Positions 1,474-1,911 of a stretch of 64,000 nucleotides of DNA are shown here, piece after piece. The notes below the pieces were generated by a model. It was given only the letters and a program-made list of their open reading frames with translations. It was not told the origin of the DNA and searched no databases. The translations under genes were made by a program, and so were the position numbers. Every line of letters starts with the position of its first letter. Position 1 is the stretch's first letter. This DNA is from Escherichia coli (GTDB lineage Bacteria > Pseudomonadota > Gammaproteobacteria > Enterobacterales > Enterobacteriaceae), in NCBI RefSeq assembly GCF_016026235.1, contig NZ_CP065613.1, one strand, 5' to 3'.

Positions 1474-1911
1474 GCCGGATGCGGCGTAAACGCCTTATCC
1501 GGCCTACGGATGGCGCGAGAATTTGTAGGCCTGATAAGACGCGTTAGCGTCGCATCAGGCATCTGCGCACGACAGCCGGATGCGGCGTAAACGCCTTATC
1601 CGGCCTATGGATGGCGCGGGAATTTGTAGGCCTGATAAGACGCGCAAGCGTCGCATCAGGCATCTGCGCACGACAGCCGGATGCGGCGTAAACGCCTTAT
1701 CCGGCCTACGGATGGCGCGGGAATTTGTAGGCCTGATAAGACGCGCAAGCGTCGCATCAGGCATCTGCACACGACTGCCGGATGCGGCGTGAACGCCTTA
1801 TCCGGCCTACGGATGGCGCGGGAATTTGTAGGCCTGATAAGACGCGCAAGCGTCGCATCAGGCATCTGCACACGACTGCCGGATGCGGCGTGAACGCCTT
1901 ATCCGGCCTAC
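1474..1911. repeat. tandem BIME array: about 4.4 copies of a 101-bp unit, each holding two inverted REP palindromes (GCCGGATGCGGCGTAAACGCCTTATCCGGCCTAC / GTAGGCCTGATAAGACGCG.AGCGTCGCATCAGGC)
   Basis: Direct reading: GCCGG motif recurs at 1474, 1575, 1676, 1777 and 1878 with 101-bp period; units are nearly identical. Confidence 0.85.

Follow-up and report, generated by a model that had tools for sequence, protein, structure and literature searches.

Results

Genes and features of the mhpE-mhpT spacer

The locus described here lies within a stretch of 64,000 nucleotides of Escherichia coli DNA which was analysed as a whole and is referred to as the window. Two genes on the plus strand enclose the spacer of interest. 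Upstream lies mhpE (412-1425, with the stop codon TAA at 1423-1425), which encodes 4-hydroxy-2-oxovalerate aldolase and is the final gene of the mhpABCDFE operon. It matches the Pfam families HMGL-like (5.4e-70) and DmpG_comm and is 99.3% identical to mhpE of K-12. Downstream follows mhpT (2005-3216), an open reading frame with a Pfam MFS_1 match that encodes the 3-(3-hydroxyphenyl)propionate transporter of the MFS family. Both identities agree with the annotations of K-12 and of strain FDAARGOS_943, the closest genome, in which the gene order is annotated as mhpR, mhpABCDFE, mhpT and yaiL.

The spacer between the two genes comprises 579 bp. As revealed by alignment of the alleles, it begins with 33 nt of unique sequence (1426-1458) that separate the stop codon of mhpE from the first position of the repeat register. 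This is followed by a repeat array (1459-1911) and by a unique leader of 93 nt on the plus strand which runs up to the mhpT start codon (1912-2004). The first hairpin of the array is located 48 nt downstream of the mhpE stop codon. The leader opens with ATTTCGCCC-GTAGGC, which is kept in all alleles as well as in the outgroup lineages and looks like a remnant of a linker together with the start of a Z unit.

The region from 1200 to 2200 was scanned for regulatory sites. A simple scan of both strands revealed no sigma-70-type promoter, neither in the array nor in the leader of 93 nt. An intrinsic terminator was not found in either of them; the G+C-rich stem-loops of the array lack a U-tract and therefore do not qualify as intrinsic terminators. 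The sole terminator-like site in this region lies inside mhpT (2039-2059), with 0.8 such sites expected by chance.

The array consists of nine alternating palindromic units

A first-pass annotation of the same DNA had described a REP/BIME array between mhpE and mhpT, made up of five REP pairs in a 101-bp unit that is repeated about 4.4 times with few substitutions. The array and its period were confirmed. Tandem Repeats Finder reported a period of 101 with 4.4 copies, 97% matches, 0 indels and a score of 822 at 1466-1911, and an independent repeat search found the identical register, starting at 1459. The count of five pairs did not hold, as nine palindromic units were counted in the array, five of them Y and four Z2, each matching the Y or the Z2 pattern; they form four pairs and a terminal Y. 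The boundaries given previously (1474-1911) are exactly the first base of Y unit 1 and the last base of Y unit 5, and the two substitutions that had been quoted are real (GCGCAC/GCACAC at 1769 and GTAAAC/GTGAAC at 1791).

Conservation between the copies is high. The registered 101-nt copies deviate from the consensus by 0 to 3 substitutions each, the four full 101-nt copies are pairwise 92-100% identical, and the stretch 1811-1911 is an exact copy (101 bp) of 1710-1810. The G+C content of the array is 61% versus 52% in the window. With up to three mismatches allowed, the REP pattern did not match once in 100 shuffles of the window, so that the array is far beyond chance; the whole window contains 15 REPs.

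The orientation of Y and Z2 alternates along the array. Y units of 34 nt lie on the minus strand at 1474-1507 (unit 1), 1575-1608 (unit 2), 1676-1709 (unit 3), 1777-1810 (unit 4) and 1878-1911 (unit 5), and Z2 units of 36 nt lie on the plus strand at 1525-1560 (unit 1), 1626-1661 (unit 2), 1727-1762 (unit 3) and 1828-1863 (unit 4). Accordingly, GTAG comes first on the minus strand in Y unit 1, the plus-strand end of which reads CTAC, and first on the plus strand in Z2 unit 1. Eight of the nine units possess this conserved GTAG at the foot of the stem. The exception is Y unit 2 with ATAG, which reads CTAT on the plus strand and is also found in FDAARGOS_943. The loops vary as well, with GTTAG in one Z2 unit (unit 1) and GCAAG in the other three, including unit 2, and with the variant GTGAAC in Y unit 4. 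Both Z2 unit 4 and Y unit 5 lie inside the exact duplicate at 1811-1911.

Two kinds of linker connect the units. Tails are joined by linkers of 17 nt with the overall form GGATGGCGCGRGAATTT, which read GGATGGCGCGAGAATTT at 1508-1524 and GGATGGCGCGGGAATTT at 1609-1625, 1710-1726 and 1811-1827. Heads are joined by linkers of 14 nt with the overall form ATCTGCRCACGACW. These read ATCTGCGCACGACA at 1561-1574 and, unchanged, at 1662-1675, and ATCTGCACACGACT at 1763-1776 and 1864-1877.

The array is the REP31 allele of this strain and belongs to BIME-2

The mhpE-mhpT array is already catalogued and is an ordinary E. coli repeat that bears the name REP31 in K-12. It is listed at 374,931-375,366 of the K-12 genome within the tandem gene pair mhpE/mhpT (Harris 2026, supplement). 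The K-12 RefSeq feature table contains no repeat_region features, and mhpE and mhpT do not appear in the RepRanger supplements. In our interpretation the array is the REP31 allele of this strain, a nine-unit BIME-2, and we hold this reading with high confidence as a whole, including the turnover and the RNA effects that are proposed below. The extent of the REP31 orthologue in the window (1459-1911, 4.4 copies of 101 nt) follows from the repeat searches and the unit coordinates.

With nine palindromic units, of which five are Y and four Z2, and likewise in its period of 101 nt, its linkers and its flanks, REP31 of K-12 corresponds to the locus studied here, to which it is 96.9% identical over 935 nt including the flanks. 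The K-12 spacer is 577 bp long compared with 579 bp here. All four Z2 loops of K-12 read GTTAG, whereas here this form occurs once beside three GCAAG loops. Moreover, K-12 has a degenerate terminal Y unit that falls 2 nt short of the intact one here, and the Y-loop variants follow a different order.

In BIME-2 elements, y and z2 units are repeated several times in tandem and separated by short linkers (PMC3333891, also PMC1187871). These linkers are termed S where they join tails and s, l or r where they join heads, and an L motif is lacking. Within a BIME-2 locus the copies are well conserved and their number varies between strains (PMC3333891, PMC1187871). Every one of these features that can be examined was found at the mhpE-mhpT locus, namely Y and Z2 units, their alternation, 4.4 tandem copies, linkers of 17 and 14 nt, conservation between copies and variation in copy number. 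The assignment to Y and Z2 was made by identity to the units of REP325 from K-12, for which these two types are given in the literature. Between the two arrays the units differ little or not at all, so that the REP consensus is matched and the classification given in the first-pass annotation stands. As is typical of REPs, which are also called PUs, all nine units are imperfect palindromes of 34 or 36 nt with an internal bulge. They are extragenic and belong to a family with many copies, with a median of 26 matches per E. coli genome for a query that included REP units. A degenerate-pattern scan of genome contigs yielded four loci, one of which was situated in an E. coli-like contig of a Clostridiales MAG.

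We also considered the related class BIME-1, which likewise combines a Y unit with an inverted Z-type unit in extragenic DNA. BIME-1 elements contain one y-z1 pair only, and the L linker between its units is long and carries an IHF site (PMC3333891). This class was ruled out for the present array, which contains Z2 units in tandem copies and linkers of 14 and 17 nt without an IHF consensus. The first-pass annotation had named IHF binding among the possible activities of such arrays. However, the IHF site belongs to the L linker of BIME-1, which is absent from the array, and of six matches to the IHF consensus WATCAANNNNTTR in the window none falls within 1400-2000. IHF binding is therefore not applicable to this subtype, and in view of the missing L linker and consensus the relevant precedent is DNA gyrase. 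Other BIME-2 elements are bound with high affinity and cleaved by DNA gyrase (PMC1475751, PMC2817692), and by analogy with them the array is probably a preferred gyrase site.

Copy number varies between strains in steps of 101 bp

We searched 5,426 complete E. coli genomes with a query consisting of the array and its flanks. The locus was found in most of these genomes, its span varying from one to another in multiples of 101 bp. As the first-pass annotation had anticipated, copy number varies between strains, and the alleles form a series of 1, 3, 5, 7 or 9 palindromic units. Spacer lengths were determined from 13 fetched alleles and amount to 175-179 bp with one unit, a single Y (FORC_041), 274-276 bp with three (ST540, SM107), 377 bp with five (DP051, DL21), 476-478 bp with seven (O145 RM9467, FDAARGOS_943) and 577-579 bp with nine units (K-12, Combat11I9, ETEC6335 and the window). 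The O157:H7 matches have a span equal to that of the single-Y allele.

Frequencies were taken from two samples, each consisting of 60 evenly spaced records, and the two agree with one another. About 48% of the sampled records carry one unit, about 9% three, about 4% five and about 4% seven. Nine units were assigned to about 23%, which is an upper estimate because 15 rows of one sample that match only part of the query were counted as nine-unit alleles. In about 10% of the records, for example in Nissle 1917, mhpE and mhpT are absent. These shares are not population frequencies, since laboratory and outbreak strains are over-represented in the collection. Alleles with more than nine units were not seen among the approximately 160 matches listed. 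A long array is thus not required, given that about half of the sampled genomes possess a single Y and about a tenth lack both genes.

At least one REP is kept at the site in every mhp-positive genome examined, including lineages in which mhpE is 94-96% identical. The order of the unit variants is shuffled between strains. Outside the allelic series, in the divergent lineage L009, which is labelled E. coli (mhpE 94.3% identical), the site is occupied by twelve units that recur with a period of 91 nt, and E. whittamii (mhpE 95.7% identical) has four units there. The draft contig of Escherichia sp. E1V33 terminates within the array. As arrays are present at the same site in outgroup lineages, the site has long been occupied by REPs while the array itself turns over.

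RNA structure of the spacer

RNA folding, which the first-pass annotation had put forward for the mhpE 3' UTR as a means of examining the array, showed the whole spacer to be strongly structured on both strands, with z-scores of -12.4 and -11.6 in comparison with shuffled sequences. The minimum-energy structure of the complete spacer pairs Y and Z units that are distant from each other, and the centroid disagrees with it. We therefore set the global fold aside and folded the local hairpins instead. Each palindromic unit folds as RNA with -19.5 to -21.4 kcal/mol on either strand; Y unit 1, for instance, reaches -21.3 kcal/mol in plus-strand RNA and -19.5 kcal/mol in minus-strand RNA.

Discussion

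Proposed function

Transcripts leaving mhpE would form successive hairpins of about -20 kcal/mol each. Such hairpins would be expected to block 3'-to-5' exonucleases, whereby the mRNA of the mhp operon would be stabilised and the 3' end of mhpE protected. Besides, they would attenuate read-through into mhpT, partly via Rho. By analogy with the REP arrays discussed below, mRNA protection and attenuation of read-through are the likely function of the array. The number of hairpins could therefore set the ratio in which enzymes and transporter are expressed. It is a more speculative idea, and one we consider rather doubtful, that hairpin number acts as a natural rheostat which tunes the uptake of 3-hydroxyphenylpropionate against its catabolism. 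In this view, transcription of mhpT may depend largely on read-through from the mhpABCDFE promoter, since the 93-nt leader has no recognisable promoter. If this were true, alleles of 1, 3, 5, 7 and 9 units would set differing ratios of catabolic enzymes to transporter, and the frequent gain and loss of copies would represent a quick and reversible way of tuning across E. coli lineages. Translation stalling has been reported for REPs that lie within about 15 nt of a stop codon; with the gap of 48 nt found here it is unlikely.

A serious alternative, which rivals the function of the array and not its identity, is that BIME-2 amplification left the array behind as a by-product, neutral or selfish, which has no selected function and is tolerated between genes. 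The variation described above is what such a by-product might display: copy number moves freely between 1 and 9 units with about half of the sampled genomes carrying one, unit variants are shuffled between strains in no fixed order, and other architectures occupy the site in L009 and E. whittamii. Moreover, REPs have been interpreted as relics of a domesticated transposase or as its substrates (PMC3333891). However, the site did not lose its last REP in any of the mhp-positive genomes examined, and a hairpin array in a transcribed spacer would hardly be without effect on the RNA. In addition, REPs between tandem genes correlate genome-wide with upstream-biased expression, and the effects of REP325 are measurable (Harris 2026). 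Taken together, we regard the absence of a selected function as possible, though the less likely of the two, and favour mRNA protection and read-through attenuation.

Probable recent expansion of the array

FDAARGOS_943 is 99.9% identical to the window over 20 kb, yet its array has seven palindromic units (3.4 copies). The copy that is missing there corresponds to 1811-1911. As the extra copy relative to this nearest genome is an exact 101-bp duplicate, a recent expansion of the array is supported. The first-pass annotation had read the high identity between copies as a sign of recent expansion or ongoing gene conversion, and only the former was borne out. Within-array homogenisation was not significant in a test of 27 repeat units from 10 strains, in which units of one array were only slightly more alike, with 3.35 differences on average, than units of different strains, with 3.89 (permutation p=0.09). 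Gene conversion or concerted evolution is therefore not clearly supported.

Within the array, two SNPs relative to FDAARGOS_943 (1574 and 1675) carry the ACAGCC variant of unit 1 over into units 2 and 3. Five SNPs are clustered in mhpE (740-1392), and six are found in the next 16 kb. Because of the cluster in mhpE, an imported recombination tract that ends in the array is as possible as slippage in place. In general, whole 101-bp copies would be gained or lost via misaligned pairing of the direct repeats, either by replication slippage or by unequal recombination. RayT, which cleaves and joins BIMEs in vitro (Ton-Hoang 2012), may assist in changing the copy number. The rayT gene is present in 3,574 of the 5,426 complete genomes and absent from about a third. 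In the window, a tblastn search with RayT of K-12 gave no match better than E=1.1.

The additional copy might be suspected to be an artefact of assembly or polishing in a strain that truly has 3.4 copies like its nearest relative. An otherwise nearly identical genome with one copy less and a surplus copy that is an exact duplicate would fit this suspicion, and a second tandem repeat (51-bp unit, 17998-18120) also has one copy more than in FDAARGOS_943. Short-read assemblies break at this locus, as illustrated by the E1V33 draft contig that ends in the array, and the spread of ACAGCC at 1574 and 1675 is a pattern which mis-mapped polishing reads could produce. Nevertheless, nine-unit alleles are genuine, as K-12 MG1655 and many other complete genomes of independent origin possess them. 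Three IS insertions and scattered SNPs relative to FDAARGOS_943 indicate a separate strain or isolate and not a re-assembly, and an array of 446 bp is easily spanned by long reads. We therefore consider an artefact improbable and retain recent expansion to the 4.4 copies of the assembly as the probable reading.

Matches to naRNA4 and open reading frames within the array

The Rfam family RF02564 (naRNA4) matches the array four times on the minus strand, at 1528-1605, 1629-1706, 1730-1807 and 1831-1908, with 84.7-88.8 bits compared with a gathering score of 59.5. On the plus strand its matches reach 57.5-59.9 bits, so that one of them, at 59.9, passes the gathering score as well. No other family reaches its gathering score in the whole window. 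From these matches it might be concluded that the array encodes naRNA4-like nucleoid-associated small RNAs of about 77 nt which act together with HU to condense the chromosome. Indeed, naRNA4 from REP325 has been reported to bind HU and to condense DNA (Qian 2015). However, the strong matches lie on the minus strand and are thus antisense to mhpE and mhpT, which are transcribed from the plus strand, and the scan of 1200-2200 detected no promoter-like site on either strand. In K-12, an in vitro NusG-stimulated Rho site is located on the minus strand 35 nt from REP31; placed ahead of the array in this direction, it would limit antisense transcription into it. Furthermore, neither deletion nor overexpression of REP325 changed the nucleoid volume, and REP-REP contacts were undetectable (Harris 2026). 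The RF02564 model was derived from REP325, and what it recognises is shared REP sequence that is present at hundreds of loci. We thus regard small-RNA genes in the array as very improbable. The naRNA4 matches are to be read as marks of generic BIME-2 sequence and not of a specific small-RNA gene, which calls for caution when this family is used in annotation.

Finally, six open reading frames of at least 60 aa overlap the array, three per strand (70, 70, 71, 71, 82 and 122 aa), and PGAP on one occasion placed a 'hypothetical protein', partial and frameshifted, at this locus in a derivative of MG1655, but that any of the frames of 70-122 aa is a real protein-coding gene can practically be dismissed, because they are composed of repeated REP translation on both strands, have no Pfam match, come and go with copy number and are unannotated in K-12 and FDAARGOS_943. 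The first-pass annotation had counted four such frames; its view that they are artefactual and occur on both strands was correct, while their number was not.

Significance

That BIME-2 arrays are polymorphic in length has been on record since the 1990s. As the element itself is catalogued, the locus is of little importance as a discovery. It does, however, offer a natural series of 1 to 9 hairpins in steps of 101 bp between two genes of one pathway, on which the role of REP arrays as tunable terminators and mRNA stabilisers, put forward recently, could be tested. Furthermore, it is a site at which short-read assemblies break or mis-count and at which spurious open reading frames are occasionally called.

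Comparison with known systems

The array shares inverted REP doublets, a conserved GTAG and a stem mismatch with the REPIN/RAYT systems, for example of Pseudomonas fluorescens, and with the REPtron of E. coli. GTAG and the stem mismatch are features needed for binding and cleavage by RayT (PMC3333891). One Y unit of the present array differs from the REPIN/RAYT systems in that it has ATAG. In a REPtron the BIME flanks rayT, whereas the window contains no rayT and the array lies about 125 kb from the position of rayT in K-12; the array is accordingly not part of a REPtron.

The malE-malF spacer is the classical example of a REP mRNA stabiliser. Its hairpins, like those described here, lie in a spacer between co-oriented genes of one pathway, and they bring about differential expression of the upstream and downstream genes. 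The malE-malF spacer contains two to three REPs compared with nine between mhpE and mhpT.

As a functional model, REP325 is the best studied of these systems; it is located in the yjdM-yjdN spacer of K-12, is the source of naRNA1-6 and has been described as six Y-l-Z2 repeats (Qian 2015). Judged by its units, the mhpE-mhpT array is a paralogue of REP325. In both cases a tandem array lies between two co-oriented genes, and the tail-to-tail linkers match at 15 of 17 positions. REP325 has a period of 100 with 5.8 copies and 12 palindromic units, compared with a period of 101, 4.4 copies and nine units here. Its head-to-head linker comprises 13 nt (AGTCGGCACCATT) instead of 14 nt (ATCTGCGCACGACA). 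For REP325, stabilisation of the yjdM mRNA upstream has been shown together with a partly Rho-dependent attenuation of transcription into yjdN; REP effects vary widely with context (Harris 2026). The two arrays have the same orientation on the plus strand, but REP325 is transcribed from the minus strand of K-12 and mhpE and mhpT from the plus strand. Relative to the flanking transcription the present array is therefore inverted, which makes the analogy inexact; nevertheless, the stabilities of the hairpins are similar on both strands.

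Discussion

The tandem array of REP units in the mhpE-mhpT spacer (BIME-2; window 1459-1911) is not the only repeat in which the window and its closest genome, FDAARGOS_943, differ. A second tandem repeat lies in the tauD-hemB spacer (17998-18120), with a 51-bp unit present in 2.4 copies at 87% matches. At this 51-bp repeat the window carries one copy more than FDAARGOS_943; thus, both tandem repeats of the stretch differ from this genome by one additional copy.

Next to the array, the second half of mhpE (window 740-1392) contains a cluster of five SNPs relative to FDAARGOS_943, compared with six SNPs in the next 16 kb. 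This cluster represents either a recombination tract that ends at the array or mutations private to FDAARGOS_943. The MhpB, MhpD, MhpE, LacZ and TauC proteins of FDAARGOS_943 have consecutive accession numbers (WP_197940083-087). Moreover, its ehaB-like autotransporter gene is interrupted by IS2 (window about 20188-20194) and its iprA-ampH spacer carries an IS5-family element as well as ISEc60 (window about 23345-23355), whereas the window lacks all three insertions.

Downstream of the array, the mhpT leader (1912-2004) is near-invariant from allele to allele, and likewise in the outgroups. Within this leader, an imperfect inverted repeat is formed by CTGATTAC (1942-1949) and GTATCAG (1962-1968), and a simple scan of the leader found no sigma-70-type promoter.

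Altogether, the window contains 15 REP units in its 64 kb. Besides the main array, the spacer of the convergent genes yaiL and frmB/fghA holds a second BIME (3881-3966), with a Z2 unit on the plus strand (3881-3916) and a Y unit on the minus strand (3933-3966). This BIME matches the Rfam family naRNA4 at 29-42 bits, which is below the threshold. Further REP units are a single unit at 37259-37295, a Z-Y pair at 39285-39373 and a degenerate, solitary Y at 59134-59167.

In about 10% of the sampled complete E. coli genomes, among them Nissle 1917 and UPEC132, mhpE and mhpT are absent and our query of the array with its flanks was matched by its REP part only. Therefore, the mhp locus is itself variably present. 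E. coli mhpE and mhpT (98.6-98.8% identity) were found on a 7.4-kb contig assigned to a 'MAG: Clostridiales bacterium' (SFGO01000113.1), and the spacer between them corresponds to the single-Y allele. The contig is almost certainly a contaminant of the MAG. In an MG1655 derivative (NZ_CP157352.1, 406-699) PGAP placed a partial and frameshifted pseudogene ('hypothetical protein') within REP31, the K-12 orthologue of the main array; here, a spurious REP-derived ORF has reached annotation.

Arrays at the mhpE-mhpT site were also found in other Escherichia. In Escherichia sp. E1V33, the draft contig (NZ_RHJI01000028.1, 11035-11147) stops inside the array, 112 nt beyond mhpE, and is an example of short-read assemblies breaking at this repeat. 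The BIME array of a divergent lineage labelled E. coli (NZ_JAATUR010000022.1, 4537-5088) is a different one, with 12 units, a period of 91 nt and a tail linker of 8 nt, and E. whittamii has four units at the site. Both of these arrays have a Z unit ahead of the first Y, whereas E. coli lacks such a Z.
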